64,000 nucleotides of DNA from an uncultured Planctomycetia bacterium (GCA_964478015.1 CAYZGM010000001.1:2981-66980), one strand, 5' to 3'. Positions 5,059 through 64,000 are shown, counted from the first letter of the stretch. Notes: generated by a model from the sequence alone, not told the origin. A program made the numbers and translations.

Positions 5059-5084
5059 TGGTCCTCCTTGGTCTTAAGAACGCC

Positions 5085-7504: not shown

Positions 7505-7527
7505 GGGCCCCTCGTTTTGTATTTTTA

Positions 7528-20634: not shown

Positions 20635-20708
20635 TGGAGCGGGTGATGGGAATCGAACCCACATCTAAAGCTTGGGAAGCTTTCATTCTACCACTGAACT
20701 ACACCCGC
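20635..20708 (-). tRNA. tRNA-Gly (anticodon CCC), CCA encoded
   Basis: Reverse complement GCGGGTGTAGTTCAGTGGTAGAATGAAAGCTTCCCAAGCTTTAGATGTGGGTTCGATTCCCATCACCCGCTCCA folds as a cloverleaf; the anticodon loop TTCCCAA gives CCC. Confidence 0.85.
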
Positions 20709-28281: not shown

Positions 28282-28724
28282 CGTTTTTTCTTTGCCGAGG
28301 CCAGGTGGATGGCAGCAAAAAAGCCCAGTTCATAGCTTTTGGCCCCAAAACCGGAGATCTGTCCCGCGGCCACCGGCGCAATAAGCGACTGATGGCGGAA
28401 CGTTTCCCGCGAGTAAATATTCGATAGGTGCACCTCCACGACCGGGACCTTGACCGCCGAAACCGCATCGCGGATTGCGACGCTCGTATGAGTGTAAGCC
28501 GCTGGATTCATGACGATGGCATCAAACACGTCCTCGGACTCCTGAATCTTGGTTACAATTTCACCCTCATGATTGGATTGAAATATTTCAAGCGTCGCTT
28601 TCTGCGATTTGGCAAGTCTTTGCAGATTTCGGTCGACAGTTTTAATCGAGAGCTTGCCGTATACGTCCGGTTCACGTTTTCCGAGCAGGTTGAGGTTGGG
28701 TCCATGAATGATAAGGATTTTCAA
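28278..28724 (-). CDS. aroQ: 3-dehydroquinate dehydratase, type II
   Basis: [23 protein letters not shown] and the HLSNIYSRE type II DHQase signature. Confidence 0.9.
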
Positions 28725-29695
28725 GCCGCCGACTCCTCTTGTATCGCCGCTTCCTTAAACCGAATGTGGTAGTCGTGGCGCACAAAATAGATGATTCCCC
28801 CGATCACGCTCAAGAGGATCAAGAGGCCAAGCCATAAAATACCCAACGCCGCCGCATACTCTCTTCCGGTGTAGGGTGTCAGAAAATATATGAAAGCCCC
28901 CTCGCGTATGCCAAGCCCGTTGAGCGATGGAAGCATGCTCACCAGCTGGACCACCGGCACCAAAAGAAAAAAATAGGTCGCTGAGGTTTTAACGCCAAGT
29001 GCCACTGCCATCAAATAGAGGACGTAAATGCCCGCGCTTTGCCCGACGACCGATAAGGCCATTGCAAAAAAAACGGTCCATCTGTGGTTCTTGAAATCAT
29101 GAAGGCCCTCATAGATCTCTCGAATTTTCCGGCCCAAGCCGAACCGATCCAGAAAAACCTGGAGGAATAGAAAGTTGCGTGCGGCACTGCGGCTAAAGAT
29201 TAAACAAAAGAAAACACAGGCCAATCCAAGAAGCGTGTACACCACCGCAGGCACCATGGGATTCCCGATCTGCTTCCTGAAAAAAATAAGTGTTAGGCTC
29301 GGAATGATAATGAACGTGAACAAACCGAAGATGCGATCCATGAGAACGCCCGTCACCGATTTGACAGCATTCTTCGTGATGCGGGCGGCACACATCGCTT
29401 TTACAATATCTCCCCCGACGGATGTCGGCAAAAAATTGTTGAAGAAATAACCGACGAAAGTAAGTTGGCAGCCCTCGCTTAGGGGTATCCAAAGCTCTTT
29501 TGCCGCGAAGATCAGCTTGAGGCGGATCCCCATCACGAGCACCGTTGAGAGCATGAACAGGACCGAAATCGCTATCAAGCCATGGTCCGCTTTTTTCAGC
29601 ACTCCCGCGATTACGGGGATATCCTCGCGAACCAGAGTGTACAAAAGACCCAAAAAAAGGGCGCTGATGGTCCCGCGGAAAAGGATTTTTTTCAT
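28721..29695 (-). CDS. LPG_synthase_TM / UPF0104-family polytopic membrane protein (flippase-like)
   Basis: Multiple TM helices from [22 protein letters not shown] onward; the upstream ORF-track extension (MPTGGRGRAR...) is Gly/Arg-rich junk and is preceded by a consensus promoter, so the start is placed at MKKILF. Confidence 0.65.
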
Positions 29696-29704
29696 GAAGC
29701 GCTC

Positions 29705-29733
29705 ATTATAGACAAACCCTCCCCCAAATGCAA
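29705..29733 (-). promoter_or_regulatory. Putative sigma70 promoter (TTGCAT, 17 bp, TATAAT) ending 9 nt upstream of the ATG at 29695, implying a near-leaderless transcript
   Basis: Minus-strand reading: TTGCAT (29733-29728), 17 nt spacer, TATAAT (29710-29705), then gagcgcttcATG. Confidence 0.4.
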
Positions 29734-29938
29734 GGAATTGAGCCCGGATTAGGGCCGCCAAACGGGCCCGACCCCTTCCGCCAGTCGGCAATCCCCACTT
29801 ACGGCATGCTCCAACTCGGTCTCACGTTTTCTGCGAAAAACCCATGCCCAATGGCCAGCCCCAAGCCACGCGGCCGACATTAGGGCCTGCTTACCCTTAG
29901 GCTGCGAGCAGCGTTGGCCAGTCATGGCTCGGGATGGT

Positions 29939-30925
29939 CTAGAGGGTGTTTCGTAGGCGTTGGGCGGCGGCTTCCGGGGGAGTGGGATTGATGTAAAAAC
30001 CGGTTCCCAGTTCAAAACCGGCTACCTGGGTCAGATGAGGGATAATCTCCATATGCCAATGAAAACTGTCCGACGATTTTGTTTGTAGCGGCAGGGTGTG
30101 GATCATAAAATTGTAGGAGGGGTCACCCAGGGAATGCTTAATCTTGCTTAAAACTGCTTTGAGCGCGGTTGCCATCGATCGGAGGGAAGCCTCCGGCATG
30201 CTGTCAAAACTCGCCTCATGACTTTTGGGCAATAACCATGTCTCAAACGGAAAACGTGAGGCAAAAGGCGCCAGGGCCATAAAATGCTCATTCGAATAGA
30301 CGGTCAGTATTTTTTCGGCGCTTTCCTGGCGAAGCATGTCGCAGAAGAGGCAGCGCTCCGTGTGCTCCTCGTGCAATTGGGCGTTCTTGAGCTCCCCCTG
30401 AACGCGCGAGGGCACGATCGGCAAGGCGATAAGCTGAGAATGCGGGTGCTCGATGCTCGCTCCTGCCTCCGAGCCATAATTTTTAAAGAGCAGAATATAT
30501 TTGAATCGTGGATCTTTTCTTAGATCACGACAGCGGTCCAGGTAAGCGCGAAGAATGCACTCCACCTCCTCTTCGGATAGATCGGCAATCTCTCGGTGGT
30601 GGTCCGGATTCTCGATGATCACCTCGTGTGCACCGAAACCTCCCAAACGGTCATAGAGACCGGAAGCGCTTCTTTCGGGATTTTCCTCGATGCTGAGCGC
30701 TGGAAACCTGTTGGGAATGACCCGTACTTGCCAATCGGGGCCGCTTGTCGTCCCCTTTTTGGAATACACGGCGATTGCAGGAGGCGTCGTCGCTTCACTA
30801 CCGGGACAAAAGGGGCAGGCTTTGCTGGATTTCAGGTACTTCTGGGGGCTGAACTCGAGTTTTGGGTGCTCCTGATCGACGATAACCCATCGGCCCGTGA
30901 CAGGATCTTTTCTAAGTTGTGGCAT
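29939..30925 (-). CDS. Galactose-1-phosphate uridylyltransferase family (HIT superfamily) protein
   Basis: MPQLRKDPVTGRWVIV, CPFCPG zinc motif, HPHSQ nucleotide-binding His motif. Confidence 0.85.
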   Translation of the reverse strand: MPQLRKDPVTGRWVIVDQEHPKLEFSPQKYLKSSKACPFCPGSEATTPPAIAVYSKKGTTSGPDWQVRVIPNRFPALSIEENPERSASGLYDRLGGFGAHEVIIENPDHHREIADLSEEEVECILRAYLDRCRDLRKDPRFKYILLFKNYGSEAGASIEHPHSQLIALPIVPSRVQGELKNAQLHEEHTERCLFCDMLRQESAEKILTVYSNEHFMALAPFASRFPFETWLLPKSHEASFDSMPEASLRSMATALKAVLSKIKHSLGDPSYNFMIHTLPLQTKSSDSFHWHMEIIPHLTQVAGFELGTGFYINPTPPEAAAQRLRNTL

Positions 30926-30927
30926 GC

Positions 30928-31965
30928 TCAGTCATCCCCCGGCGTATCGCGTAGAAGCGCGGCCGCCTCTTCCGGGGGCGTTGGGTTGATGTGGATTCCT
31001 GTGCCCCATTCAAATCCTGCATCCTGCGTCAATCGAGGCATGATTTGCCAGTACCAATGGGTGTCTTCCTCCAACGTTTTCCAATAAATGGCGCTTTTTT
31101 TATGACGAAAAGGTGCGGTGTGAAGGACCAGGTTATGCGGCGGGTCGTTGAGTAAATTGCGTAATCTTACCAGGCATTGCCTGAGCACCCATGCCAGGTC
31201 GGCAAAAGCGTCTACCTGCGTCTTGGCGAAATCAGCCGAGTGCTTCTTTGGAAGAATCCACATTTCGAATGGATAGCGGGAAGCGAACGGACAATAGGCA
31301 AAAAAAGAATTGTTCTCGACCACGACCCGCGCGCCGTTAACCCTCTCCTGTTTTAGCACGTCGCAGACCACGCAACGCTCTCGGCGCTCGTAATAGTTCC
31401 TGGCAAGCGACAGCTCTTCTTTCACTCGCTTGGGAATGATGGGCATGGCCAAAAGTTGGGAACGTGAATGGCGGATGACGTCCGTTGCGGAACCGGAAAC
31501 TAGCCCGTGATTTTTGAAAAGAAGCGCGTACTCAAAACGCGGGTCATCGCCGAGTTCACGCAATCTCTCTGCGTATACCGCCAAAACCTTTTCGATTGCC
31601 TGCAGAGAGAATTCATCCAGATCGTGCTGGTGGCGCGGCGTTTCCACGATTACTTCGTGCTGCCCCACCGCGTCGCGGGTATCGTAAATGCCGACGCCCT
31701 CCGAATCGTACCCATCGGCCAGGTTCGAGAGAATGGGCACCTTGCTCAAAATAGATCGAACATCCCAGCCGGGTCCGTTTGGCGGGCTACCGGGCTTGCG
31801 CAAGGCGAAGACCTCGGAGGTTGTCATCGCCTCTTTGCCCTCGCAAAACGGACATTCGCGCTGATCCATTGCTTTTTTTGGACGGTATTCCATTGGCCGC
31901 CATCCGCGCTCGGAGGAAATGATGGTCCAGTAGCCAGCCAGGGGATCGCGCCGCAACTCAGACAT
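30928..31965 (-). CDS. Second GalT-family nucleotidyltransferase paralog (tandem copy)
   Basis: MSELRRDPLAGYWTII, CPFCEG, HSRSQ variant of the HxHxQ motif; directly adjacent to the first copy with a 2 nt gap. Confidence 0.85.
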   Translation of the reverse strand: MSELRRDPLAGYWTIISSERGWRPMEYRPKKAMDQRECPFCEGKEAMTTSEVFALRKPGSPPNGPGWDVRSILSKVPILSNLADGYDSEGVGIYDTRDAVGQHEVIVETPRHQHDLDEFSLQAIEKVLAVYAERLRELGDDPRFEYALLFKNHGLVSGSATDVIRHSRSQLLAMPIIPKRVKEELSLARNYYERRERCVVCDVLKQERVNGARVVVENNSFFAYCPFASRYPFEMWILPKKHSADFAKTQVDAFADLAWVLRQCLVRLRNLLNDPPHNLVLHTAPFRHKKSAIYWKTLEEDTHWYWQIMPRLTQDAGFEWGTGIHINPTPPEEAAALLRDTPGDD

Positions 31966-43749: not shown

Positions 43750-45159
43750 TCAATAGGCATTGCGTCGGGCAAAAAAAGTCATGAAAAGAATCTTGATATC
43801 CAACAGCAGAGACCAGTTCTCGATGTAGTAAAGATCGTACTTGGTCCTTTCTTCGATGGACGTATTTCCGCGCAAGCCATTGACCTGCGCCCATCCGGAC
43901 ATGCCGGAACGTATGGAATGGCGCGCCATGTACCGAGGGATATCCTCCTTGAATTGACTCGCAAAAAATGGGCGCTCGGGTCTGGGTCCCACCAGGCTCA
44001 TGTCCCCTTTCAAGACATTCCACAGTTGCGGTAATTCATCGAGGTTGTTCCTCCTCAAAAAACCGCCAATCTCGGTGCGGCGGTCATCGTTTTCACGGGC
44101 CCATACAGGGCCGGTCTTGGCTTCGGCGTCCACGCGCATCGTCCTAAACTTGTACAGCATAAAATGACGGCCATCCTGTCCTACGCGCTCCTGCTTGAAA
44201 AAAACAGGACCTGGGGAACTGCGGCGTATACCGTACGCAATCGGAATGAACACCGGCAAAAAAAGCAGGAGCCCGCCTGCCGAAAAAAGAATGTCCATGA
44301 ATCGTTTCAAGACCCGATTTTCCCACTCCGCCAAAGGGGAATCCATAAAAGACAGTATCGAGATGCCGCCGAGGTAGGAAATATTCATTTTGGATGCGAT
44401 CAGACCAAAAATGTCCGCGATCCAGCGGAAAGCCACCATTTCTTTTTCACATTCATACAGGATCTTGAGGACCGCATCTCCCTGGATTGCGGGGTCCGAC
44501 AGGATGACCTCGTGCACCTGGTGCTCCTTTTTGAGCAGCTCAGGGAGATCACCCACCCTCCCAAGAACGGGGACCCCGCAGACCTGCTCCCCAGTCGTTT
44601 TCCGATCATCTAAAATACCGGCCACTTTCGTCGCCAGACGGAGATTTTTTCGGTAGACCTGGATCAATTTTTCAGCGTTTGCGTCAGACCCGATGAGGAG
44701 AACATTCCGGAAGCTTCCGCGTGAGCGGTCCAGACCCATCAAAAGAAGCCCCAGGAGAAAGCGAGCCAGGGATATTCCGGGCCCCAAGACGAGACCCGAC
44801 ATCACCAGGAATGTGCGGGAAAAACTGAATTGTCTTACAAAAAATGTGATGGCCATCAAGACAAGCGTTCCCGCCAGAACCGATTTCATGACACGCCATG
44901 TTTCGTCCGCGAATGTAAGACGGGCGATGGGCCGATAGAGCCCGTAAAAACGTAAAAAAAAGATCATGATGATGACGATAAGATGGAAAGCCTTGAAGTA
45001 AACGGCGTGGTCTTCTCGCGCCAAAAGAGTCTGGAATAGTCCGCTTTGGAAACGGAACCAAAAGAGCGTCCAAAGCAAAAAATAGACTACCCCGGCGTCC
45101 AGCATAAGCTGGATCCAGGGGAGAAATGTTTCTCGCTGTCTTCGTCTGGGCTGAATCAT
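43750..45159 (-). CDS. Initiating polyprenyl-phosphate hexose-1-phosphate transferase (bacterial sugar transferase, WbaP/EpsB-like)
   Basis: N-terminal TM helices; C-terminal Bac_transf domain FKQERVG...MLYKFRTM...[21 protein letters not shown]. Confidence 0.85.
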
Positions 45160-49294: not shown

Positions 49295-50800
49295 TCAATC
49301 GGTGTCTGTGCCGAAGTTGAACGCGTGGGTCCTTAGGAGGCGAAGCCCCGACCGGACGTAATTTACAAAAACATGGAAAGACCGGATGTCCCGGAGAGTG
49401 TTGAAAATATAGGTGGGACGAAGATAAAATCCCAGCAGGGCTTTTTTACGCAGGCTTATTAACTGCGCCGTGCTGAGCGTCAGGGTCCGGACAATGGGGC
49501 GCGCATAATCGCCCTTGGATAAATCTTGATCACTGAACAGGCCCATCTCCTTGGCGATCCGGTAGTACTCCGTTCCGGGCAGCGGGTACGCAATATTAAA
49601 ATCCAAGAAGCTCGGGTTGATTTTCTTGGCAAAATCCACGGTTTGTTTCACCGTTTCAAGCGTCTCCCAGGGAAGACCGATCAGAAAAAGGCCATAGGTT
49701 TTGATGCCGTGTTTCTTGCATAGGGCAATGGCTTTCTCCGCATCTTCAAGCTTGGCGCGTTTTTTCATTTTATCCAGCATTTCCTGGTTGCCGCTTTCAA
49801 TGCCGAAGCCGATCACCCAACAGCCGGCGCGCTTCATCGCTTCGAGCCGCTTTTCGCTGATCGTATCCACGCGGCTATTGGAGCCCCAGCGAATATCTAA
49901 TTTTCTTTCGATGATCATTCCGCAAAGGTCCGTCACCCATTTCTCATCCCAGGTAAACGTATCCGCCCGAAAGAAGAAATTGCGAATATGGTGATTTTTG
50001 ACGCATTCTTCGATCTCATCGACAATGTTGGCGGGAGTCCGTACCTTGAGCTTGTAGCCGGACGCAATGGTCACCGCGCAATAAATGCATTGGTGGGGGC
50101 AACCGCGCCCGGTATTGATCATGGTGATCGGCTCACCTGTGTCCGGCGCGACGTACAGATCGTTGTTTAAGAGGTGGCGGGCGGGAAATGGCAGCTGGTC
50201 CAGATTATCGACTTCGATGTAAGGCCTGTCGGCGTTACGCTTCAAGACTCCCTCCGAGCGGTAGGCCAGGCCCAGGATCGTGGAAAGGTCCTTTCTTTCC
50301 ACGATCTCTACGATCGCGTGTTCAGACTCTCCCCGGATGACAAGGTCCAGTTCCGGGAATTGCAGTAACACCTCATCATCTTTCGAAGTAAAGTGCGCCC
50401 CCTTTGCTACAGTGAGGATCTCAGGATCAATTTTTTTTGCGATACGGCAGGCCGCCAGATCCTGCTGGATCGTCGGGGTTGTCACGCTGACGAGTAGCAG
50501 GTCGGGCTTGAACCGGCGTAGATCTTTCTCAAGATCGTCCCACGGGGATTTTTTTGCCGCATAGTCCTCGATCCGGCAAGTGATTTCCAGTTTTTCCAGC
50601 ATGGCCGCCATGTAGGCCAGATCGAGCGGTGCACGGTTGGGCTGGGCAGTCATCCCCTCCACGGGGGCCTGGCACCGGTCGTCCCTCATGTAAACCCCGG
50701 TGGGAGGATAGATTAGGAATACTTTTTTGATCTTCTTATTTAACGAAGCTTCAGTCGACAAATCGATACTTGAGGAGGGTGAAAATGGCTTCAAACCCAT
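49295..50800 (-). CDS. B12-binding-domain radical SAM protein
   Basis: N-terminal B12-binding region; CPHQCIYCAV (CxxxCxxC) radical SAM cluster motif. Confidence 0.85.
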   Translation of the reverse strand: MGLKPFSPSSSIDLSTEASLNKKIKKVFLIYPPTGVYMRDDRCQAPVEGMTAQPNRAPLDLAYMAAMLEKLEITCRIEDYAAKKSPWDDLEKDLRRFKPDLLLVSVTTPTIQQDLAACRIAKKIDPEILTVAKGAHFTSKDDEVLLQFPELDLVIRGESEHAIVEIVERKDLSTILGLAYRSEGVLKRNADRPYIEVDNLDQLPFPARHLLNNDLYVAPDTGEPITMINTGRGCPHQCIYCAVTIASGYKLKVRTPANIVDEIEECVKNHHIRNFFFRADTFTWDEKWVTDLCGMIIERKLDIRWGSNSRVDTISEKRLEAMKRAGCWVIGFGIESGNQEMLDKMKKRAKLEDAEKAIALCKKHGIKTYGLFLIGLPWETLETVKQTVDFAKKINPSFLDFNIAYPLPGTEYYRIAKEMGLFSDQDLSKGDYARPIVRTLTLSTAQLISLRKKALLGFYLRPTYIFNTLRDIRSFHVFVNYVRSGLRLLRTHAFNFGTDTD

Positions 50801-52606: not shown

Positions 52607-53663
52607 CTTTAAATATTCCAAGCATTCGTCTTGCATAATTAGTCATGGAAAAATCCCCCGCCCTCTGCAAGGCAGCCTGAGAAAGAGCGCGCCTAAGCTT
52701 CGCGTCCTCGGAATAGCGTCTCAGCGCCTCCGAAATTTGGTCGACATTTTCAGGGTCCACCATCAGCGCGGTATCCCCGGCCACCTCCGGCAGCGAACTC
52801 CGGTTGGAGCAGACGCCGCTTAAACCGCAACTCATGGCCTCCAAAACAGGCAGCCCAAAACCCTCATAAAGTGAGGTTATAGCATACCCCAGCGCGGCGT
52901 TGTAGAGATAAATTAGCTCATCCAACGCGACATAACCTAAAAAGACAACATCCTCCCGCAACCCCCGGTCTCGAACAAAGCTTTTGATCTGCTTGTCGGC
53001 AGTCGCGGGCTTTCCTACAATGACAAGAGCGAAAGAGTGGAGTTTTTTTTGCTTAAGTCTGTCATAGGCCTCCAGCAGACGCAGGTGGTTTTTCCGAGGC
53101 TCCAGAGTCCCAACGCTAATAAAAAATGGGCGTTGGATGCCGTGTTTGTCTAAGATGTTTTGCGCCGCGGCCGGGTTTGTTGTTCTTCTGAAGACAGGGT
53201 TTACCGCCAGAGGCACCACGCTTACACGTTCGGGTCCGATATTCAAGAACCGGGAGAGATCCCCCCGCGTGTGTTCGGAGCTTGCGATGATGCATTTCGC
53301 CCGACGCACCGCCCCTGGGAGCCAGCGTGACCAATAAAAACCGGAAACAACCCCCTGGTTTCCCGGATATGCCATGCCGATCAGATCGTGAACGGTCACC
53401 ACCGATGGAACGGAGCTCCACATGGGCGGGGCAAAACCCGGGCTGTAGAGAAGGTCCACCCTGTCATGCCGAGCCTTCAAGGGAAGAGTCGCAGATTCCC
53501 AATAAATTCGTCTTGGCGTATTCAGCTCTCTCCCGGAAGCGGTGTAGAGAAGAAACTCCGTTTCAGGCGATTCTTTTTTCATGGCCTGGATTAAATTTTG
53601 GGCGGCCATGCCGATTCCGGTCTTGCCCTGAACCACCGAGGCGTAATCGACCCCTATTTTCAT
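52590..53663 (-). CDS. Glycosyltransferase family 4 (GT-B)
   Basis: TSLYEGFGLPVLEAMSCGLSGVCSNRSSLPEVAGDTALMVDP. Confidence 0.8.
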   Translation of the reverse strand: MKIGVDYASVVQGKTGIGMAAQNLIQAMKKESPETEFLLYTASGRELNTPRRIYWESATLPLKARHDRVDLLYSPGFAPPMWSSVPSVVTVHDLIGMAYPGNQGVVSGFYWSRWLPGAVRRAKCIIASSEHTRGDLSRFLNIGPERVSVVPLAVNPVFRRTTNPAAAQNILDKHGIQRPFFISVGTLEPRKNHLRLLEAYDRLKQKKLHSFALVIVGKPATADKQIKSFVRDRGLREDVVFLGYVALDELIYLYNAALGYAITSLYEGFGLPVLEAMSCGLSGVCSNRSSLPEVAGDTALMVDPENVDQISEALRRYSEDAKLRRALSQAALQRAGDFSMTNYARRMLGIFKDEIKK

Positions 53664-54307
53664 CGGGACAGGATCCCCATAAGCATCAACGGCCGCTTGA
53701 TCAAAAAATTTCTCTTCACACGTTTCATGAAATAGGGTTTCATGCGCAACGAACCGCTGGCGGCAAAAATTTTACGCCAATCATTTTCTTTGAGCAGGCG
53801 TTCATTGCCAAAGTCCTTATGCCTGTAATAATAGCCGGGCACGCTGAAAATAAACACCGGCGCGACGCGCAGAGCCTCGGCAGACGCGGCCCGAATTTCT
53901 TCATCCGTCATGTGTTCAAGAACGCCTTGAGAAAAGACGGCATCAAAAGAATTCTTTGGATATCGCAGTCTGAATATATCCTGGTTTTCAAACAGAACGC
54001 TCGCTTTCCAATTTTTTGCGGTCTCGCGGGCCTTTTCAAGCACTTCTTCATCCCGGTCGCAGGCGTTCACATTCACGCCCGCCATCGAGAAAAAAACAGA
54101 CATGATGCCCGACCCGCAGCCGGCTTCAAGAAGCCTCGCGGGTTTGAGGTCCAAGACCCCCTTTAAAAAATCTCTATGAATGGCCGTGTGCTCGGCAAAA
54201 TATTCTTTTCCGCCGGCCCCCTCATAAAAATCACCCCACCTTTTCGTCTCTTTATTCACCGGCAAGCACCCCTTTTTCCCAACGCTTTGCCCAGCGCACG
54301 AATTCAT
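53660..54307 (-). CDS. Class I SAM-dependent methyltransferase
   Basis: LLEAGCGSGIMSVFFSMAGVNVNACDRDEEVL motif I, DAVFSQGVLEHM. Confidence 0.75.
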   Translation of the reverse strand: MNSCAGQSVGKKGCLPVNKETKRWGDFYEGAGGKEYFAEHTAIHRDFLKGVLDLKPARLLEAGCGSGIMSVFFSMAGVNVNACDRDEEVLEKARETAKNWKASVLFENQDIFRLRYPKNSFDAVFSQGVLEHMTDEEIRAASAEALRVAPVFIFSVPGYYYRHKDFGNERLLKENDWRKIFAASGSLRMKPYFMKRVKRNFLIKRPLMLMGILSR

Positions 54308-54992
54308 GGTAGGAGGATAGCACTGAATAGATGAAACCCTCCATTCCGTCTCGGAATCCCTGCTTCAAAAAATAGATGTCCAGAAAGCGATAAATCGGTC
54401 TTCCGAGCACATGCGCCATTCCAATCGTTTTCTCCTCTGACGGCTGGGCAATGGCCGTATACAATTGCAGTTTTTTCCAATAATCCTCCAACGTTTGAAA
54501 AGAAATGTGCCGTAAGGGCTCTCGCAGCAACCCTGTTTTTCCGTCCACCCTCAATTCTTCATGAACCGGGTTCTTAAAAACACCCCGCCCTCTCCGGAAT
54601 AGGCGAACAGGCTTATCATTTTGAAGGCCGCTGTACCGGAATTCCTTGTTGAAGAGCCGCGTATGACGCAATACTCGGTAGGCAACATCGGCGGTCTCAG
54701 AGGAAATCGTCCTTTGAATTTCACTCGCAAGCGCGACGCTCACCCGCTCATCCGCATCCACGGATAAAATCCACTCCCCCTTGGCCAGCGAAAGAGCAAA
54801 ATTTTTCTGGGATGAAAAATCATCGAATTTTCTGAGCAGCACGTTTGGCGTGAATCGCCTTGCGATTTCGCAGGTCCTGTCCGCGCTGTGGCTATCGACT
54901 AGAATTATTTCATCGGCAAACTTCAGGGCCGTCAGACAATCGGCGATATTATTTTCCTCATTCAGGGTGATAACAATAGCCGACAGCCTCAT
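54252..54992 (-). CDS. Glycosyltransferase family 2
   Basis: MRLSAIVITLNEENNIADCLTALKFADEIILVDSHSADRT. Confidence 0.8.
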   Translation of the reverse strand: MRLSAIVITLNEENNIADCLTALKFADEIILVDSHSADRTCEIARRFTPNVLLRKFDDFSSQKNFALSLAKGEWILSVDADERVSVALASEIQRTISSETADVAYRVLRHTRLFNKEFRYSGLQNDKPVRLFRRGRGVFKNPVHEELRVDGKTGLLREPLRHISFQTLEDYWKKLQLYTAIAQPSEEKTIGMAHVLGRPIYRFLDIYFLKQGFRDGMEGFIYSVLSSYHEFVRWAKRWEKGVLAGE

Positions 54993-55939
54993 CAGAGGCT
55001 CTCCGATATCTTAAATATTTCTCGGTCGGAGCGGCGATGCTCCTCGCCACGCAATTGATCTCGCCTTTTTAAGGCGGCCCCCAGCCTTCCCAAAGCCCAA
55101 AGAGTTCCCCACAAGAATTCTGGTCTTGCCTGGAACAAAAAATAGATCGGCCGGACGAGAATCCACAAAAAATAACTTGCCCAAATGCGCTCATCCGTAA
55201 TATTTTTCCAAATAAACAGATGATTATTCCGATGATTGATTGCGGCCAGCCGGCGACGCCCAAAGTGCTTTTTAAACGTGGCCTGGCCCTTATGATACAC
55301 GCGGCTTTGGGGGACATAGTAGCAGGCCCGGCCCGTCTTCCAGGCGCGGAAACAAATATCGGCGTCTTCCACCGTTCCGGGCAGATACAAGTCATCAAAA
55401 CCGCCCAATGCCAAAAAAATTTTTCGATGATATGCGCCGAAACCCGCCTGCATCGTAAATCCCGGCGCTCCCACTTTCGCTTCATATCCCTGGAAGCGAG
55501 TTTCGGCACGCAAGATCCCATTTTTAAAATCCATTTTAGATAAACTGCCCTCGTACTGCTTCCCGTCAAACGTCCACGCCTGCGGAGCCGCCAAAAAAGC
55601 ATCACGATGATTCCGGAACGCATCGATGAGCGGGTCTATGAAATCCGACTCCACTTTGAGGTCGTTGTTCAGCAAAATCACGATGTCCGCTGCGCTTTCC
55701 CGGGCAGCATCATTGAAAGAGCACAGGACGCGGTTCTTGGATAAACGGATCCTGATGGATGGGAATTCCTTTTTTAGCATCTCGACGCTTCCATCGCGGC
55801 TGTCATTGTCAATCACTGTAAGAGCGCAAGGGGTTAAGCTTTTTTCTACGGCCTCAACAATGGACGGAAGACACTCTCTCAGCAAATCTGTTCCCTTGTA
55901 GTTCAGCACAAATACTTCGGCTTTCAGCGGCTCATTCAT
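54992..55939 (-). CDS. Glycosyltransferase family 2
   Basis: VFVLNYKGTDLLRECLPSIV...VIDNDSRDGS; the ORF-track start at 56086 overlaps the upstream membrane-protein gene by 155 nt, so the start is moved to MNEPLK. Confidence 0.75.
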   Translation of the reverse strand: MNEPLKAEVFVLNYKGTDLLRECLPSIVEAVEKSLTPCALTVIDNDSRDGSVEMLKKEFPSIRIRLSKNRVLCSFNDAARESAADIVILLNNDLKVESDFIDPLIDAFRNHRDAFLAAPQAWTFDGKQYEGSLSKMDFKNGILRAETRFQGYEAKVGAPGFTMQAGFGAYHRKIFLALGGFDDLYLPGTVEDADICFRAWKTGRACYYVPQSRVYHKGQATFKKHFGRRRLAAINHRNNHLFIWKNITDERIWASYFLWILVRPIYFLFQARPEFLWGTLWALGRLGAALKRRDQLRGEEHRRSDREIFKISESL

Positions 55940-57776
55940 GGGGCAGCTCATACAAATAAATTCGTGAATTGTCTTTGCCATGGGCAAAATTTTCTTCGTG
56001 CAATAGTTTGGCTTGGCGCTGCGAGAGCGCGCTCTGGAGAACACTCGTCGCCCCCTCGGAAGTTTGCGTCGCCCTAAGAAGCGCATGGGTAAATCCTCGC
56101 GCTCTTATCTCATCGATTAATTTCTCGGCGCTAAGCAATGCAAGTTGCGGTTCAAGCCCCAAGAGAATATCCAATCGCGCGGAACGCCTGTCCAGGTAGT
56201 ACTGAGACGGCTCGTTCTCCAAAAGAATGGCGGCGCTTGGGTCCAAATGTTCATTGATCCAGGCCTGCATGGCATAAGAGCGCTCGGTTTTTTCCAGGTA
56301 TTTCGCCTTGGATGGATACGCAAGGTATCGTGATAATTTTCCGTTATAGTAAAAAATAAATAGGGCTTGCGTGAAAATGGCCGCGATCATCAGTGCTTTT
56401 AATGCCTTCCACGACTTGTCTCGATAACCAAATAGCTCTTCGGCTGCCAGGCCGCACAAAAGAACCAGCACAGGAACCAGTGGAAAAAGGAATCGGAAAT
56501 GCTGGACAAGATAGAACCAAAAAAGGAATTGGGAAATAATAAGAAAAAGAAGCCTTGCCTTGTCCTCTTTTTTCATGCGAACGGCTACGAGGATAGGCGT
56601 CAGCATCAGGACAAGGATCCCGACCTGGCTGTCTCCGCCGCCAAAACGCTCCGGATCCAAAAAGAAAAGAAAGGGCGCTCGAAAAAGCGCCGCCACTCCT
56701 CGGCCGATTCCGGTCTGGTCGCGTATATCACTTACCCACGCATGCCCGGTGAACCATGCGTTAAAGTAAGGAAAGATCGGATTCCCCGTGGCCAGGTAAG
56801 AACGCAAATACCACCCTGCGCACGGCAGGAGCGCCACGCAAGAGAAAATAAGCAAAACCCTGAACCCGCGCACCCCCTTTTCACGAAATGTTTTCCGGGC
56901 GAGCATCAGAAATAAAGCCGCCACGAATGGCGCGGCCAACAGCTTTACGGCCAAAGCGACGCCCGAAAAAAGCGCCGTTGCCATAAGAAACAATTCTTTC
57001 GATTCGTGAAAATAGCGCCACATGGCAAAAAAAGATAAGAAAAGAAAAAAACTCAGCGCGATGTCCGTGTAAGCATAGGGAGCTTGCGCCATGAATCCGG
57101 TCGTGGTTAACAAGAGCAGTGCCGCGGCGAGGCCTCTGGCGCGCGGCTCAAATAAGCGGCATGCGGAGGTCAACATTCCCGCGGTCCCCAAGAGAAAACC
57201 AAGGTTGTAAAGCTTGGAGAAAATTTCGCTCCGAAAAAGAAGCCCTTGTAAATACAGCATTTGGATCAACAACGGTTGGAAGGCGTTCACGCTGTAGGGG
57301 ATCGGATAAATCGCGCCCTTTTGGATGAACGCTTTTGGGCAGTAGAAATGATAGGCCAGCGCGTCCCTGCCCGGCTGCCCGGACGCGATTGCTAACAAGG
57401 TGACGAGAAGTGAAAGTGAGGCCACCCATGTTAAAAAAACCTCGAAGCCGCCGCGGAACGTAAAAAGTACTTTTAGATATCTTCCAAATGACGCAAGCCA
57501 CTCAAAAAACGATCGTAGGGTCGCAATCCACACCCCGATCACAACGATGGATAGCGCCCCGACTGACCAGAACCGAAGACCCGATAAAAGACCCAACAGC
57601 CAAATTGCGGAGGCAAAGAGCGCTGTCCCGAGACCCAGCGAAAAACACCCCTCTTCCATCTCATCCAGAAAAGGGTATCTCGCCAGCAAAAATAATAGAC
57701 GGCCGGTCTGCAGCAGCGCCGCCGCAAAAACCGCCCACAGTGGAAGCGTAAAAATTAGTTCAACGAAAGAACTCAT
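55932..57776 (-). CDS. Large polytopic membrane protein, GT-C-like (ArnT/PMT-like glycosyltransferase, or O-antigen polymerase/ligase-like)
   Basis: At least 12 hydrophobic helices over 614 aa, with a soluble C-terminal domain; no sharp family motif, so the call rests on architecture and context only. Confidence 0.45.
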   Translation of the reverse strand: MSSFVELIFTLPLWAVFAAALLQTGRLLFLLARYPFLDEMEEGCFSLGLGTALFASAIWLLGLLSGLRFWSVGALSIVVIGVWIATLRSFFEWLASFGRYLKVLFTFRGGFEVFLTWVASLSLLVTLLAIASGQPGRDALAYHFYCPKAFIQKGAIYPIPYSVNAFQPLLIQMLYLQGLLFRSEIFSKLYNLGFLLGTAGMLTSACRLFEPRARGLAAALLLLTTTGFMAQAPYAYTDIALSFFLFLSFFAMWRYFHESKELFLMATALFSGVALAVKLLAAPFVAALFLMLARKTFREKGVRGFRVLLIFSCVALLPCAGWYLRSYLATGNPIFPYFNAWFTGHAWVSDIRDQTGIGRGVAALFRAPFLFFLDPERFGGGDSQVGILVLMLTPILVAVRMKKEDKARLLFLIISQFLFWFYLVQHFRFLFPLVPVLVLLCGLAAEELFGYRDKSWKALKALMIAAIFTQALFIFYYNGKLSRYLAYPSKAKYLEKTERSYAMQAWINEHLDPSAAILLENEPSQYYLDRRSARLDILLGLEPQLALLSAEKLIDEIRARGFTHALLRATQTSEGATSVLQSALSQRQAKLLHEENFAHGKDNSRIYLYELPHE

Positions 57777-59719: not shown

Positions 59720-60436
59720 TTACGTTTCCTGATATGTCTTCAGCCGATCTTTTAATGTTTGAGAAAATCCCGCCTGATCAGCGTTTTCTAAGAGTTCCTC
59801 CAAATAGGCGCCCAGCCCCCGGTCCTGGGCATGAGCAAATCCAAGAAGTTTTTCTCGAATCTCGTGAACGTACTCCCGCCGGACCGCTTCGTCAGGATTG
59901 AGACATAAAACAAAAAGATTATCCATTTTGTCCAAGAGCTTAATGAGCATAACCTCTTTTTCCCCCACCCCCAAACGGTTGTAATAGGCCTCCTTTTGCG
60001 CCGAAAAAGGGATGCTGCGATCCACTAACAAAATACGTATTGCGGATGAAACCCAGCCGCCAAAGGCCCTTTCAATTTCAGGCAGAGACACGGAGGTCAC
60101 TTCCGGCACGTTGTGCAGGACCGCCGTCACCAACGCATCCGCTCGCACCGAAGGATCGATGCGAAGCAAGAAATTTGCCACGCGAATCGGGTGACTGAGA
60201 TAGCTCGATCTCAAAGCGCTCTTTAAAAAATCAAGGGTCTTGGCATAATCCAGAGCCCTGTGGATCTCATTGTCAAAACGTTCAAATTTTTTTAGATCGT
60301 TCAAAAAAACTCGCTCCGTGTCTGTTGCGGATACACACAGACTTTCTATTTTCTTTAGTCTCTCCGTCTCGACCGATTCAAAGACCGTACGCCCCCTAAG
60401 AACCAGATCCATGAAGCGCCTTGTATTTTCTTTCAA
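59720..60436 (-). CDS. HD-domain protein (RelA/SpoT-hydrolase-like small HD), with Asp-to-Asn change in the HD dyad
   Basis: HPIRVANFLL ... AVLHNVPE ... KLLDKMDNL parallels the SpoT-type HD motifs, but reads HN instead of HD. Confidence 0.55.
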   Translation of the reverse strand: MKENTRRFMDLVLRGRTVFESVETERLKKIESLCVSATDTERVFLNDLKKFERFDNEIHRALDYAKTLDFLKSALRSSYLSHPIRVANFLLRIDPSVRADALVTAVLHNVPEVTSVSLPEIERAFGGWVSSAIRILLVDRSIPFSAQKEAYYNRLGVGEKEVMLIKLLDKMDNLFVLCLNPDEAVRREYVHEIREKLLGFAHAQDRGLGAYLEELLENADQAGFSQTLKDRLKTYQET

Positions 60437-61139
60437 GCGTAAGCCAATCCTCCGGGGTATCCACGTCTACGGCAAGAGAGTCGGGAACGGAGTAGCAATT
60501 CAATCCTTGTTTTACATTGAACCAATGCCCGCCGTGACGAACCAGCCTGGCGTAGTCCAAAAAATAGAACAAGCCCGCATCCACCTGAGCCTGCGGCAGT
60601 TTTTGCGAAAAGGTCAAAAGTTTTTTTGGAAATAAGGGTTTCCACCGGCCATGGGGGCTTTGAACAAGCGCGCGGTATGGGCTATGTGAAAATTTGGTCG
60701 TGGCCACAAGAACAGAGGCCATTTTTTTTAAAAATTCCCTGTGCGCTTTTTGGTAAGTGCCTGCGTCAACCAATGCTGCCGTGGCCAGCGCGAAGAGGAC
60801 GGTCGTGCCAGTCCCTTTCATTCCCAGGGCTCTCAAATATCGCGGGATGTCCTTTTTTAGAAGTTCCATCAACGTTGTGTGATCATCTGAAAACTTGGGG
60901 TCGCGTAGATCCAAAACCAACGCCCCGGCAGCCTCTGCGATTCGCTTGATCCCCGGGTCATCCGTCGAGACGGCGACCGTTTCCGCCACGCCTGATTTCT
61001 GAATCGCCTCGATGACGTGACAAATGACTGGCTTGCCGCCTAGACGCTTCACGTTTTTTCTGGGAACTCTTTTCGAGCCAGCTCTGGCCGGAATATAGGC
61101 AATCAAAGCCACCGTCACCCCCTCAATTCTTCTGCACAA
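60396..61139 (-). CDS. CMP-sugar (acylneuraminate/pseudaminate-type) cytidylyltransferase
   Basis: VALIAYIPARAGSKRVPRKNVKRLGGKPVICHVIEAI is the CTP_transf_3 signature. Confidence 0.8.
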   Translation of the reverse strand: MCRRIEGVTVALIAYIPARAGSKRVPRKNVKRLGGKPVICHVIEAIQKSGVAETVAVSTDDPGIKRIAEAAGALVLDLRDPKFSDDHTTLMELLKKDIPRYLRALGMKGTGTTVLFALATAALVDAGTYQKAHREFLKKMASVLVATTKFSHSPYRALVQSPHGRWKPLFPKKLLTFSQKLPQAQVDAGLFYFLDYARLVRHGGHWFNVKQGLNCYSVPDSLAVDVDTPEDWLTLERKYKALHGSGS

Positions 61140-63177
61140 CCGTAAACTGTGTGATATCTGCGTCGACCGCGGAATTAACTTTTTCGGCGCGCAGGACTTT
61201 CAGGCCCATCTCTTGATAAATCCGGGCATGGTCATAACCATACCTCGAAAAGTTGATGTCCGTATCTTCCTTGTGGACCACATATTTTTTGCTTACGCGG
61301 AGGATCTCGCGGCGCATTTTATCCGCTTTTTTAGGGGGATTGTGGAGAATAACGTTGGATGTGAATACCACATCAAAAGTACCGTCAGGAAACGGCAGGC
61401 TCTCGGCATCCCCTTGGATCAGCGTGATTCCCTCAAGACCAGAAAGATACTCCTTTGCTTTCTCCAGCTGAGTTCGGCTGAAGTCGATCCCGGTTAGCGG
61501 CGCAGCCGTGAACTCTCTCAAAGATTTAAGGACTTTGCCGTACCCGCAGCCCACCTCCAAAATCGACGCCCCCCCTAAACCGCCTATCTCTCTTGCCAAA
61601 AAACGGCTGGTCTCCCCGCGGTCCTTGCGGGACTCCTGCTCTTCAAAGTAACGTTTTCCTCCTCTGCGCTCCCAATAGCGGCGTATATTGCTGTATAGCA
61701 AAAGTCGCCCCAACGTTGGGTTCTGTTGAAAAATACCCACAAGAAGACGACTTGTTCCAAAACGCCGCTGCCCATAAAAAAGCAAGGGGGCGCTACCCAA
61801 CATTGCCGCAAGAGGGCGAAAAAATTGGGCATGGGATGAATTCTCTGGCAGCCATCGATCGAGCAGAAAAAGAAGAATCAGCGGATAAGAGGCACAGAAA
61901 ACAACTTTAAAAATTTCCGCAAAAACGGTCGCACGGCCAAACAATGTCCGAAGCGCCAGCGCGGCATAGACAACGTACAGGGTGAGATACGCCCCGAAAG
62001 TGACCCAGGCAACGGAAGTGATGCCGCCACCGCCGGCTATTACCGCGGCGTTGATGATCAGACATGCGACCCCCAGGAATCCCTGGACTGGAATCATCCA
62101 AAGATATTTTTTAAATGTGACCAGTGTATCGGACATGTTATTCAAAAGAATCATAAAAAGCGTTGCAAACAAACCAACCTTCATTGCCGAAATGCCGTCG
62201 ACATACTGAGGTAAAAAAGTACGGACAGCCCAGGGCCCAAGCATCCAGAGGAACGCCACCATGAGCGGCATGTAGACTGCCATGAACAGCGTTGGGTAGA
62301 CCGCGAGTTTTCTTAATCTAGCGGAATCGTTCGAGGCCCCATACGTTTCATTCAAATAAGGGAAAGTGATCACGCCGAGGTTATTGGGAAAAGCTGTAAC
62401 CAGACTGCTGGCCATAATCACGAGACTATAGATTCCAAGCGCTTTGAAACCGAGTAGCGCGCTGATCGATATTTTGTCCACACTGCTAAGAAAGGTAAAA
62501 AAAATATTCACCACAATCAAACCGACGCCCATTTTGAACAAAGATGAAAGCTCCCGCCAGTCCCAGTCGAGCCGGAAGCGAACATTTGAAAATCTTAATA
62601 CATAGATGAAGTTGAGGACAAAACTCAGGATCATGGATAGGTAATATCCGTATAGACCTAAGCCTGTGATCAACAGCACCGTGAGGACCGCGTTTGCGAG
62701 CGCCGAGTAAACATTAAACCGATTGATGAATAAAAACTGCTTCTCTGCCCTCAAAAGGCTGATGCAAAATGTGGATGCCCGTTGAAAAAAGCTCAAAAAA
62801 GACAATGCAAGCAGGCTGTAAAAAAACAGTTCCCCCATTTTTCCACGCAGCACAAATGCGGCCACTGCCATCGCCAGGCTCAGGAACAAGGCGATCACGA
62901 TCGTAAAAGTGAAGGAGACGTTTCGGATGCTCTCCGCGCGATCAAAGCGCTGTCTGCCTTTTTCAAATGGAATCTCACGGCCCGCCGCGTTGGCGAGACC
63001 AAGGTTTGAATATTTTGTGTAATTTAAAATGACCTGCAGGCTTACCCAAACACCCATTTGCTCCGGCCCAAGAACATTCCGGATGAAAATGGCAAGCCCG
63101 ATGGTGATAAGCTGCATAAAAAAATAGCCCGCCGAGTAAGACGCAAATTCACGCGTGAGTGTACGGCTGAAGCTCAT
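61123..63177 (-). CDS. Fusion protein: Wzx-like MOP/polysaccharide flippase (N-terminal, about 450 aa) plus class I SAM methyltransferase (C-terminal, about 200 aa)
   Basis: 12-14 TM helices typical of the polysaccharide-biosynthesis Wzx family, then ILEVGCGYGKVLKSL motif I and FDVVFTSNVILH motif II in the same uninterrupted ORF. Confidence 0.75.
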   Translation of the reverse strand: MSFSRTLTREFASYSAGYFFMQLITIGLAIFIRNVLGPEQMGVWVSLQVILNYTKYSNLGLANAAGREIPFEKGRQRFDRAESIRNVSFTFTIVIALFLSLAMAVAAFVLRGKMGELFFYSLLALSFLSFFQRASTFCISLLRAEKQFLFINRFNVYSALANAVLTVLLITGLGLYGYYLSMILSFVLNFIYVLRFSNVRFRLDWDWRELSSLFKMGVGLIVVNIFFTFLSSVDKISISALLGFKALGIYSLVIMASSLVTAFPNNLGVITFPYLNETYGASNDSARLRKLAVYPTLFMAVYMPLMVAFLWMLGPWAVRTFLPQYVDGISAMKVGLFATLFMILLNNMSDTLVTFKKYLWMIPVQGFLGVACLIINAAVIAGGGGITSVAWVTFGAYLTLYVVYAALALRTLFGRATVFAEIFKVVFCASYPLILLFLLDRWLPENSSHAQFFRPLAAMLGSAPLLFYGQRRFGTSRLLVGIFQQNPTLGRLLLYSNIRRYWERRGGKRYFEEQESRKDRGETSRFLAREIGGLGGASILEVGCGYGKVLKSLREFTAAPLTGIDFSRTQLEKAKEYLSGLEGITLIQGDAESLPFPDGTFDVVFTSNVILHNPPKKADKMRREILRVSKKYVVHKEDTDINFSRYGYDHARIYQEMGLKVLRAEKVNSAVDADITQFTVVQKN

Positions 63178-63743
63178 GCAGAAACCTCCACGCCGGATGT
63201 CCGCCCCTTTTGACTCATCAACTGCTCGACGGGCCGTTCATCCTGAAGAGGAATAATTGGCTGATAAACGCCTGGGTTCTTTCGGAAATCAAGCAAAAAT
63301 TGGTCTATCCTGTTGAATGCGTCTTCGAAACTTGAAAACTGTTGAAGAGATTTTCCAAATACCGCCGCACACTCACGGTCAATCAAACCCTCAATGAAGT
63401 CCGGATACAGAGCAAGAACCGGCAAACCGCTGGTGGCAACCTCGTAGAGCGCCGTCGTGGGCCTGTCTAAAATGACCGCATCTACGGTCATCAAACTTTC
63501 CCTGACTGACCGGTGATTATCCGTCATGTGGCTTGCTTTTTTTTCCCTTAAATACGGCAGCACCGACGTTTCGGCGTAACGATTCACCCGACCGGCCGAG
63601 TGCTTGTAGATAAAATTAAAATCTTTCTTTTGAGCGAAAAAATCGATCAATTTTTTTTGGTATTCAAAGTACCAGACAGCCGGGTAAGTCATGCAGTTAA
63701 AATATCTCTGATGAATTAAAAGTTTTGTCGGAATATACAACAC
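63174..63743 (-). CDS. C-terminal segment of a TagF/capsule-type transferase-like protein (GTG start); probably the 3' part of a frameshifted longer gene
   Basis: VLYIPTKLL... loosely resembles the TagF-family KxxLYAPTWR region; an upstream open frame continues to the window edge in a different frame. Confidence 0.35.
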   Translation of the reverse strand: MLYIPTKLLIHQRYFNCMTYPAVWYFEYQKKLIDFFAQKKDFNFIYKHSAGRVNRYAETSVLPYLREKKASHMTDNHRSVRESLMTVDAVILDRPTTALYEVATSGLPVLALYPDFIEGLIDRECAAVFGKSLQQFSSFEDAFNRIDQFLLDFRKNPGVYQPIIPLQDERPVEQLMSQKGRTSGVEVSA

Positions 63744-64000
63744 AGTCGGCGCATCTCTTTTCGGTGCCTGAGATTTGCGCTGCGCGTCTCTTGCTGTTTC
63801 TTTCAGAAAATGGGGGGCGGTAAGGAGACGACATGCGCTAACATAGGTCTCTTTCAGGCTGCGCTTAAATTTTTCACTCGAAAGCCCGTCCGTTGTTAAA
63901 TACCAATCAAATGCATCAATATCGGAGACTTGCCACGCAACGTCCCAAAATACGTCACTGCCGTGCTGGATTCCGACGGTTTCTATTCCTTTTCTCTTGG
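63705..64000 (-). pseudogene. Partial upstream reading frame (runs off the window) that is out of frame with the 63174..63743 ORF; candidate 5' half of a frameshifted TagF-like gene
   Basis: Manual translation of minus frame: ...VGIQHGSDVFWDVAWQVSDIDAFDWYLTTDGLSSEKFKRSLKETYVSACRLLTAPHFLKETARDAQ..., stops at about 63705. Confidence 0.3.

Follow-up and report, generated by a model that had tools for sequence, protein, structure and literature searches.

How Wzx-type flippases select their cargo, and whether non-sugar decorations are placed on envelope glycans before or after flipping, are open questions in envelope glycobiology. Two kinds are among the closest described systems. One three-component system that modifies glycans in the periplasm combines a polyprenyl-phosphoribose synthase, a MATE-family flippase, and a GT-C glycosyltransferase of family GT136 (Kelly et al., 2024; PMC11127046), whereas in ABC-dependent O-antigen export by WbdD and Wzt-CBM, a cytoplasmic methyl modification is tied to the export of the lipid-linked glycan (PMC11127046). 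A 64,000-nucleotide (nt) stretch of DNA from an uncultured Planctomycetia bacterium (GCA_964478015.1, CAYZGM010000001.1:2981-66980; hereafter the window, with positions counted from its first nucleotide) contained a single open reading frame (ORF; 61123..63177, minus strand) encoding a bifunctional inner-membrane protein. This protein consists of a 14-helix MOP (Wzx/MurJ-like) flippase and a complete cytoplasmic class I S-adenosylmethionine (SAM)-dependent methyltransferase (MTase), whose activity is predicted from its sequence.

The resemblance of this fusion protein to WbdD/Wzt is conceptual only. The transporter is of the MOP type rather than the ABC type, and coupling in WbdD/Wzt occurs by cap recognition, not by fusion. 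WbdD combines a kinase, an MTase, and a C-terminal coiled-coil ruler, whereas Pfam found only the flippase and the MTase in the fusion protein, which contained no kinase, had no residues left for a coiled-coil past the MTase, and bore no sequence relation to WbdD beyond the class I MTase fold; an APH-family kinase was encoded four genes downstream. Like the three-component systems (GtrA/B/V; Kelly et al., 2024), the fusion loci encode a candidate lipid-donor synthase, an MOP flippase, and a GT-C together, the GT-C in the window being located at 55932-57776. Unlike in those systems, the candidate charging enzyme is CDP-alcohol-phosphotransferase-like (known here from genes alone) instead of a GT2 or a phosphoribosyltransferase, and the MTase is an extra conserved component.

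The ORF started with ATG, encoded 684 amino acids (aa) followed by a stop codon, and contained zero internal stops. Its start codon overlapped the stop of the upstream gene (ATGA), and a GGAGG ribosome-binding site (Shine-Dalgarno sequence; 63185..63189, minus strand) was read from the sequence 7 nt before the ATG. The first-pass annotation, which gave no strand, had described one ORF in which a Wzx-like flippase is continued by a class I SAM MTase, and this description was confirmed by the ORF listing, Pfam (both domains above their cutoffs), AlphaFold2 (AF2), and Foldseek. The two motif strings that had been quoted were both present in the protein, ILEVGCGYGKVLKSL at residues 539-553 and FDVVFTSNVILH at residues 601-612. 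Inspection by eye for an internal start of a separate MTase revealed no methionine and no GTG or TTG preceded by a Shine-Dalgarno sequence near residues 470-500.

The flippase half comprised residues 1-480 (61738..63177, minus strand). Residues 80-322 matched Polysacc_synt_3 (PF13440) with 43.2 bits against a Pfam cutoff of 23, and the full-length AF2 model contained 14 helices over residues 1-473, with predicted local distance difference test (pLDDT) values mostly of 80-95. Foldseek matched the model to the MOP transporters WzxE, MurJ, and MATE in the PDB with a probability of 1.00; the best target-normalised TM-score (0.79) was obtained with the lipid III flippase WzxE (9g9o), and MurJ, the 14-helix lipid II flippase, aligned over 505-523 columns. 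The model agrees with the MOP fold, which has two six-helix bundles and, optionally, the transmembrane (TM) helices TM13-14 as in MurJ. A PDB sequence search with the flippase half yielded spurious matches only, and no NCBIfam family was reached. In the N-in orientation with 14 TM helices, the cytoplasmic loops carried 21 lysine and arginine residues and the periplasmic loops carried one; a topology with both termini inside is thus predicted. The final helix, TM14 (residues 448-473; 61759..61836, minus strand; boundaries from the AF2 secondary structure), would therefore end in the cytoplasm, which would place the MTase, as the first-pass annotation had proposed, in the compartment where SAM is available. 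The protein is similar to Wzx, WzxE, and MurJ (PST and MVF families of the MOP superfamily) in its Polysacc_synt_3 domain, MOP fold, 14 helices (as in MurJ), predicted N-in/C-in topology, and genomic setting, an envelope-glycan locus that includes a WbaP-type primer, but it differs from them in bearing a complete C-terminal enzyme domain. Its context, which includes the WbaP-type primer, GT2, GT4, and GT9 glycosyltransferases (GTs), and the GT-C, points to a polyprenyl-phosphate-linked glycan or sugar as the putative cargo.

The junction of the two halves was located at residues 479-480 (61738..61743, minus strand). BLASTP similarity to the closest unfused flippase (P0005, 494 aa, 53% identity) covered residues 1-480, and that to the closest standalone MTase (P0018, 216 aa, 64% identity) covered residues 479-683, with residue 479 pairing with residue 12 of P0018. 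The two homology blocks therefore abut without a spacer. Judged from these alignments, about 14 terminal flippase residues and about 11 initial MTase residues appear to have been lost at the join, with no insertion, and the MTase domain begins approximately six residues past the end of TM14 with no added linker. The flippase part had earlier been assigned to the N-terminal 450 residues; its multi-helix MOP/Wzx character held, but the membrane domain extends to about residue 473 and the flippase homology to residue 480. The junction itself had been sought at 61800-61950, which encodes TM13-TM14 and lies about 60-200 nt above its actual position.

The MTase half comprised residues 479-684 (61126..61743, minus strand). 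Residues 539-631 matched Methyltransf_25 (72 bits, cutoff 27) and Methyltransf_11 (66.8 bits, cutoff 21.2), and several overlapping class I MTase models in Pfam, including Methyltransf_31, spanned residues ~525-635. Modelled alone with a 32-sequence family alignment, this half reached a pLDDT of 93.4 and a predicted TM-score of 0.90, and it is predicted to be a canonical class I Rossmann-type MTase. The nearest solved structures were ChlM, the bacterial phospholipid N-MTase PmtA (8ys9), PH0226, phosphoethanolamine N-MTases, and sugar O-MTases (Foldseek E-value of 1e-11). PmtA modifies the head group of a lipid at the surface of the membrane. It and the phosphoethanolamine N-MTases (5wp5, 3uj6) were among the best sequence-profile and structural neighbors, but the likeness is limited to the generic Rossmann core (TM-score of ~0.6-0.7, 14-23% identity). 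The SAM-binding motif I, LEVGCGYG (residues 540-547; 61537..61560, minus strand), and D565 after beta-2 (GIDFS) were invariant or nearly invariant in the 32 family members and four fusions. The family-invariant polar residues Y501, W502, R505, G506, G507, E513, Q514, E515, H612, N613, R627, and R645 were also retained, and the family-specific polar set included YW..RGG..YF.EQE in the N-terminal lid, HN after beta-4, R627, H635, E637, R645, and GYD. With the SAM motifs and family residues intact, the domain looks catalytically competent at the level of its sequence. Membership in a curated NCBIfam family, whether TIGR03587, PmtA, or another, was rejected because no cutoff was reached; the best match was TIGR03587, and the PmtA-type NF045882 scored 27.7 bits against a cutoff of 390.

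A homologue search with the fusion protein, covering 5.8 billion proteins, recovered the identical protein and three further full two-domain proteins, namely P0002 (683 aa, 65% identity), P0003 (644 aa, 65% identity; N-terminus cut by the contig end), and P0004 (683 aa, 54% identity), which originated from one Logan SRA assembly and two JGI metagenomes. The 2055-nt coding sequence was found with 0 differences on an independently assembled ENA contig (L007) from the groundwater sample "Hain_H51", and a third contig bore a cluster member at least 90% identical to the fusion. No gaps occurred around the join in any of the four aligned fusions, and all fusion loci shared the gene order ~635-aa protein, fusion, CTP_transf_3, HD_4, SDR, APH, PMT-like, and GTs. 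In pairwise codon analysis, synonymous divergence among the fusions was saturated (pS of 0.75-0.85); the MTase half showed a nonsynonymous divergence (pN) of 0.11-0.18 and 72-81% aa identity, whereas the flippase half showed 46-62%, such that the MTase half is the better-conserved half of the protein. These results show that the fusion is real and under purifying selection. The first-pass annotation had also considered that an assembly indel had joined two genes. In this reading, a one-base assembly or sequencing error would have merged two neighbors. Such errors are a general concern in metagenome assemblies, and the fusion state of neighboring genes does differ among orthologous loci. However, the coding sequence is identical in an independent assembly, the three diverged orthologues from different samples and sources keep the same in-frame, gapless junction instead of presenting two separate genes that differ from the window by one indel, the end of the flippase homology coincides exactly with the start of the MTase homology and leaves no intergenic remnant, and the downstream half is under strong purifying selection. 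An artefact is next to impossible because a frameshift would neither recur in four such distant lineages nor leave the downstream half the best conserved.

The architecture was confirmed to be unusual. Among 1.84 billion cluster representatives (50%-identity clusters) scanned exhaustively with HMMER, one (P0004, which stands for this clade) spanned both halves, and the other strong matches were flippases of ~490-500 aa or MTases of ~240 aa. A search for homologous fusions yielded this clade and a second flippase-MTase fusion, P0148 (817 aa), in which the flippase is 25% identical and the C-terminal domain is of the Methyltransf_23 type; the MTase belongs to a different subfamily with a Cys-rich insert and is preceded by a spacer of ~100 residues, and this fusion is an independent event. 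At the opposite end, P0227 (687 aa) carries an N-terminal APS kinase fused to a related flippase, whereas P0190 is a longer flippase relative with an unannotated C-terminal extension. Like the window protein, P0148 and P0227 tether a PST flippase to a cytoplasmic tailoring enzyme, although they arose independently. Sequence comparison thus indicates that this architecture is very rare and that the tethering of tailoring enzymes to PST flippases arose more than once. Full-text literature searches retrieved no paper on a flippase-methyltransferase fusion and no match for N-methylacetimidoyl legionaminic acid together with methyltransferase. Both halves belong to well-known superfamilies; the novelty resides in their architecture and in the gene-context link that this reveals for an uncharacterised MTase family, rather than in any demonstrated chemistry or fold.

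Read-through from a flippase gene into an adjacent MTase gene was considered as the origin of the fusion and rejected. The MTases in the closest unfused loci (L003, L006, and L093) belong to other families, the best of them showing 40% identity to the fused MTase over 115 aa, and where the true MTase family adjoins a flippase, the MTase gene comes first. In L003/L004/L006 (11482-13142) and L093 (35-1756), the unfused sister flippases were flanked by sulfation genes. A sulfotransferase gene was located directly downstream, and a pyruvate-kinase-like/ATP-sulfurylase fusion was located upstream in L093. These neighbors, together with the APS-kinase fusion P0227, suggest a sulfated cargo in the sister-flippase clade.

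The fused MTase belongs to a large family of standalone MTases of ~200-260 aa (~240 aa), with 43-65% identity over 95-99% of the query. This search was word-indexed and used residues 486-684; its list omitted the fused P0001-P0004, and absence from it is accordingly not evidence of absence. Fused and standalone members share the motifs YW..RGG..YF.EQE, LEVGCGYG, GxDFS, LHN.P, R.GYD, and QF. Standalone members also possess an extension of ~53 residues N-terminal to the YW..RGG motif, which is aromatic-rich and has a median net charge of +9 and a hydrophobic moment of 0.57, and which, from these properties, appears to be the signature of a peripheral membrane anchor. The fusion lacks this basic amphipathic extension and has the flippase instead, with TM14 occupying its place, and its gene order is reversed relative to the standalone arrangement of MTase then flippase.

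Scanning species-representative genomes (GTDB) with the family alignment identified 80 loci, with matches all at or below 51% identity. Almost all were from Planctomycetota, including Ca. Kuenenia and Isosphaeraceae such as Singulisphaera acidiphila DSM 18658 and Tundrisphaera lichenicola, both represented by complete genomes; one was from Omnitrophota. In S. acidiphila DSM 18658, the standalone MTase (237 aa; NC_019892 2376448-2377161, corresponding to L036 9890-10603) is the first gene of a tightly packed operon; it is followed, in order, by a Polysacc_synt_3 flippase (~500 aa), a GT-C of the PMT/PMT_2 type (638 aa), and a membrane protein of 295 aa that is CDP-OH_P_transf-like, and a DUF2617 gene lies divergently upstream. 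This MTase/(flippase)/GT-C/CDP-OH_P_transf-like operon (L036 9023-14982 in NC_019892) recurred in L012-L091. In the 59 loci with at least 5 kb of downstream sequence, the GT-C and CDP-OH_P_transf-like genes lay on the MTase strand in 58, and an MOP flippase gene directly followed the MTase in 31. None of the operon components reached a curated NCBIfam cutoff, and the CDP-OH_P_transf model of Pfam scored 25.3 and 25.0 bits in planctomycete loci (cutoff 22). Counterparts of all operon parts were present in the fusion loci. The window GT-C showed 23-28% identity to the planctomycete and Omnitrophota GT-Cs (tblastn E-values of 1e-9 to 1e-16) and is probably the counterpart of the GT-C that accompanies the standalone MTases. 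Upstream in the fusion locus L001, and outside the window, a 289-aa CDP-OH_P_transf-like protein had 26% identity to the planctomycete one (E-value down to 1e-18), although it scored 18.5 bits, below the Pfam cutoff. The gene neighborhoods therefore suggest that the MTase family is habitually linked to an apparatus for the export and transfer of lipid-linked glycans, and that the fusion turns one of these links into a covalent one, with the gene order inverted.

Directly upstream of the flippase, in fused and unfused loci, is a translationally coupled gene for a soluble protein of ~635 aa (630-649 aa in L003-L006; L001 8097-10004). In the window, its C-terminal part occupies 63174..64000 (minus strand; assigned by ORF and synteny), runs off the end, and has the stop that overlaps the start of the fusion. 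The protein had no Pfam match, no NCBIfam match, and no TM segments; from its position alone, it is a candidate transferase for a nonulosonic/ulosonic acid. Downstream, the minus-strand genes encode, in order, a PseF-like protein, an HD-domain protein, an SDR, an APH-family kinase, the GT-C, two GT2s, an MTase, and a GT4, followed by a UDP-GlcNAc 2-epimerase, a GT2, a B12-binding radical-SAM enzyme, another MTase, GT9/GT4, the WbaP-type primer, and further GT9/GT2. The PseF-like gene (60396..61112, minus strand; CTP_transf_3 in Pfam and the gene call on L007), which has a probable GTG start 11 nt past the fusion stop, is predicted to encode a cytidylyltransferase for CMP-activated nonulosonic/ulosonic acid; its score of 160 bits for TIGR03584 is below the cutoff of 205.7. 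The GT-C (55932..57776, minus strand) is a PMT-like membrane transferase of 614 aa with ~10 TM helices by hydropathy (Pfam PMT, 31.3 bits, cutoff 22.7). The priming enzyme (43750..45159, minus strand) is a WbaP-type polyprenyl-phosphate sugar-phosphate transferase (Bac_transf, PF02397, 233.7 bits). No ABC exporter, Wzy, or WaaL was detected in the window between 20 and 64 kb, which leaves the fused protein as the sole visible exporter.

The operon is otherwise fluid. In the GT2/GT2/MTase region (window 53660-56086, minus strand; orthologous to L001 17231-19527 and L002 9279-11572), all three genes are separate in the window, with an overlap between the 246-aa GT2 and 215-aa MTase genes, which are read in different frames, whereas GT2 and MTase are fused in L001 (446 aa) and the two GT2s are fused in L002 (566 aa). 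The join of flippase and MTase remained constant across loci while these neighbors varied, and this constancy is the more striking because fusion and fission are common in the operon.

The architecture, the gene context, and the membrane-anchor-like N-termini of the standalone relatives support the reading that methylation of the lipid-linked cargo by the MTase occurs at the inner leaflet, by the flippase entrance, as the last cytoplasmic step; this reading is given a probability of about 0.5. The anchor-like extension is the main argument for a membrane-surface site of action of the MTase family, and hence for an acceptor that is probably lipid-bound; the presence of PmtA among the nearest structures points the same way. 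The enzyme would modify the cargo or its head group immediately ahead of translocation, the covalent tether would stand in for the basic amphipathic anchor of the standalone MTases, and the methylated cargo, once flipped, would probably be handed to the co-encoded PMT-like GT-C. The fusion would thereby record a functional partnership that is seen as a gene neighborhood of MTase, MOP flippase, GT-C, and CDP-alcohol-phosphotransferase-like protein in other phyla, and P0148 and P0227, by their sequences, support the tethering of tailoring enzymes to such flippases. The first-pass annotation had proposed methylation of a lipid-linked repeat unit coupled to export, which is plausible, although a small donor for the co-encoded GT-C is an equally possible cargo. 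Two versions of the cargo are thus conceivable. An undecaprenyl-diphosphate-linked oligosaccharide started by the WbaP-type primer would correspond to the classical role of Wzx, and the lack of another exporter in the locus keeps this version open; the four-gene module of planctomycetes favors a small polyprenyl-phosphate-linked donor for periplasmic modification, conceived by analogy with the three-component systems of Kelly et al. (2024).

Several observations weigh against cargo methylation. The flippase is not beside the MTase in 27 of the 59 loci, in which the GT-C and the CDP-alcohol-transferase-like protein are the constant partners, and this MTase family is missing from the neighborhoods of the closest unfused flippases (48-53% identity). 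The structural neighbors of the MTase are generic (TM-score of 0.6-0.7, 14-24% identity) and confirm the fold without naming the substrate, and the interdomain geometry is unreliable, with an MTase pLDDT below 55 in the full-length model, in which four alignment rows cover the MTase. Fusion and fission are common in this compact operon, and the fusion could be of neutral origin. Furthermore, a CMP-activated nonulosonic/ulosonic acid is also a product of the locus, as acetamidino sugars probably are, and these are plausible soluble substrates. The main rival reading, which is tentative, is that the protein is a Rosetta-stone fusion without mechanistic coupling, in which a soluble precursor, for example CMP-nonulosonic acid or its acetamidino group, is the substrate of the MTase and tethering to the flippase only secures co-expression, stoichiometry, or membrane proximity. 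The adjacent PseF-like gene, the acetamidino-type genes upstream in L001 (described below), and the frequent rearrangement of the operon are consistent with such a role, as is the identity of the best NCBIfam match of the MTase, the pseudaminic acid biosynthesis-associated methylase TIGR03587. However, this family was not reached (47 bits, cutoff 112.05; 34.4 bits for the S. acidiphila standalone member), and in Planctomycetota the true family sits in the four-gene membrane-protein module without nonulosonic-acid genes. A soluble substrate would also leave the basic amphipathic extension of the standalone members unneeded, and the zero-length-spacer join is conserved while neighboring fusions vary. 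That the MTase lacks catalytic activity and regulates flipping as a SAM-sensing or gating plug is very improbable: the very short tether would permit steric gating, with nothing specific otherwise in its favor, whereas motif I, D565, and the family-invariant polar residues are all kept as in the standalone enzymes, and no other part of the protein is as well conserved as the MTase domain.

A variant of cargo methylation that differs in the cargo assigns the flippase to a periplasmic modification system, similar to GtrABV or to that of Kelly et al. (2024), rather than to O-unit export by Wzx. The CDP-alcohol-phosphotransferase-like protein would load a small head group onto polyprenyl phosphate, the MTase would methylate it, the flippase would flip it, and the GT-C would pass it on to an acceptor in the envelope. 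A precedent exists for an MOP flippase with a GT-C and a lipid-donor synthase (PMC11127046), the module occurred in 58 of 59 loci without other glycosyltransferases, and all components are present in the fusion loci. On the other hand, the assignment of the CDP-like protein of the fusion locus is below the Pfam cutoff and its chemistry is putative, this protein and the GT-C are only 23-28% identical to their planctomycete counterparts, and the window has a WbaP-type primer, many GTs, and no other exporter in view, with which an O-unit or oligosaccharide cargo is equally compatible. This variant is rather unlikely. It would be equally speculative to generalize it into a four-component envelope-modification pathway, widespread in Planctomycetota and Omnitrophota, in which the CDP-like protein builds a lipid-linked head group, a dedicated membrane-surface MTase methylates it on the cytoplasmic face before it leaves its lipid, the flippase translocates it, and the GT-C transfers the methylated group to an acceptor in the envelope, with methylation and flipping merged into a single polypeptide in the Omnitrophota clade.

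Other features of the loci are as follows. In L001, the region upstream of the fusion and outside the window (4291-8118) contained genes for a DegT aminotransferase, HisH-like and HisF-like proteins, and a protein of 395 aa that combines an N-terminal Cys cluster with an SGGKDS PP-loop, a set that we take to be typical of acetamidino-sugar synthesis (WbuX/Y/Z, PseA-like). Further upstream were Fe-ADH_2 (G1P-dehydrogenase-like), NUDIX, cytidylate-kinase-like, and NTP_transferase genes. The B12-binding radical-SAM enzyme of the window (49295-50800, minus strand), which lies between a GT2 and a class I MTase, may carry out C-methylation or a different radical modification of a sugar, and similar genes were also found in L009 and L062, both standalone-MTase loci. 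Elsewhere the window has the content of an ordinary chromosome, including PriA, AccC, dGTPase, and beta-oxidation genes; the named relatives of its AccC (77-85% identity) were all from Ca. Omnitrophota, which makes an Omnitrophota bacterium from groundwater the most likely source. Two tandem GalT/HIT-like paralogues (DUF4921/DUF4931-type nucleotidyl transferases; 29939-31965 and 28721-29791, minus strand) adjoined an LPG_synthase_TM-family membrane protein. The only tRNA in the window, tRNA-Gly(CCC) (20635-20708, minus strand), lay between a PfkB-family kinase gene and a gene for a 563-aa protein without a family match.

A tailoring enzyme placed on the cytoplasmic end of a flippase without a linker offers a direct handle on cargo selection and on the order of modification. 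The fusion predicts that a lipid-linked intermediate would be methylated immediately before translocation, and it constitutes a defined construct, a flippase with its putative substrate-modifying partner, for structural work. It also exposes an uncharacterised MTase family and its operon, which is present in cultivable Planctomycetota (Singulisphaera acidiphila) and is thus genetically testable. If the tentative four-component pathway holds, only methylated cargo would be presented to the transporter, which would be the Wzx-pathway counterpart of the modify-then-export checkpoint of WbdD/Wzt. Even if the fusion is only a device for co-expression, it would still provide a clean Rosetta-stone link of this MTase family to lipid-linked glycan export.

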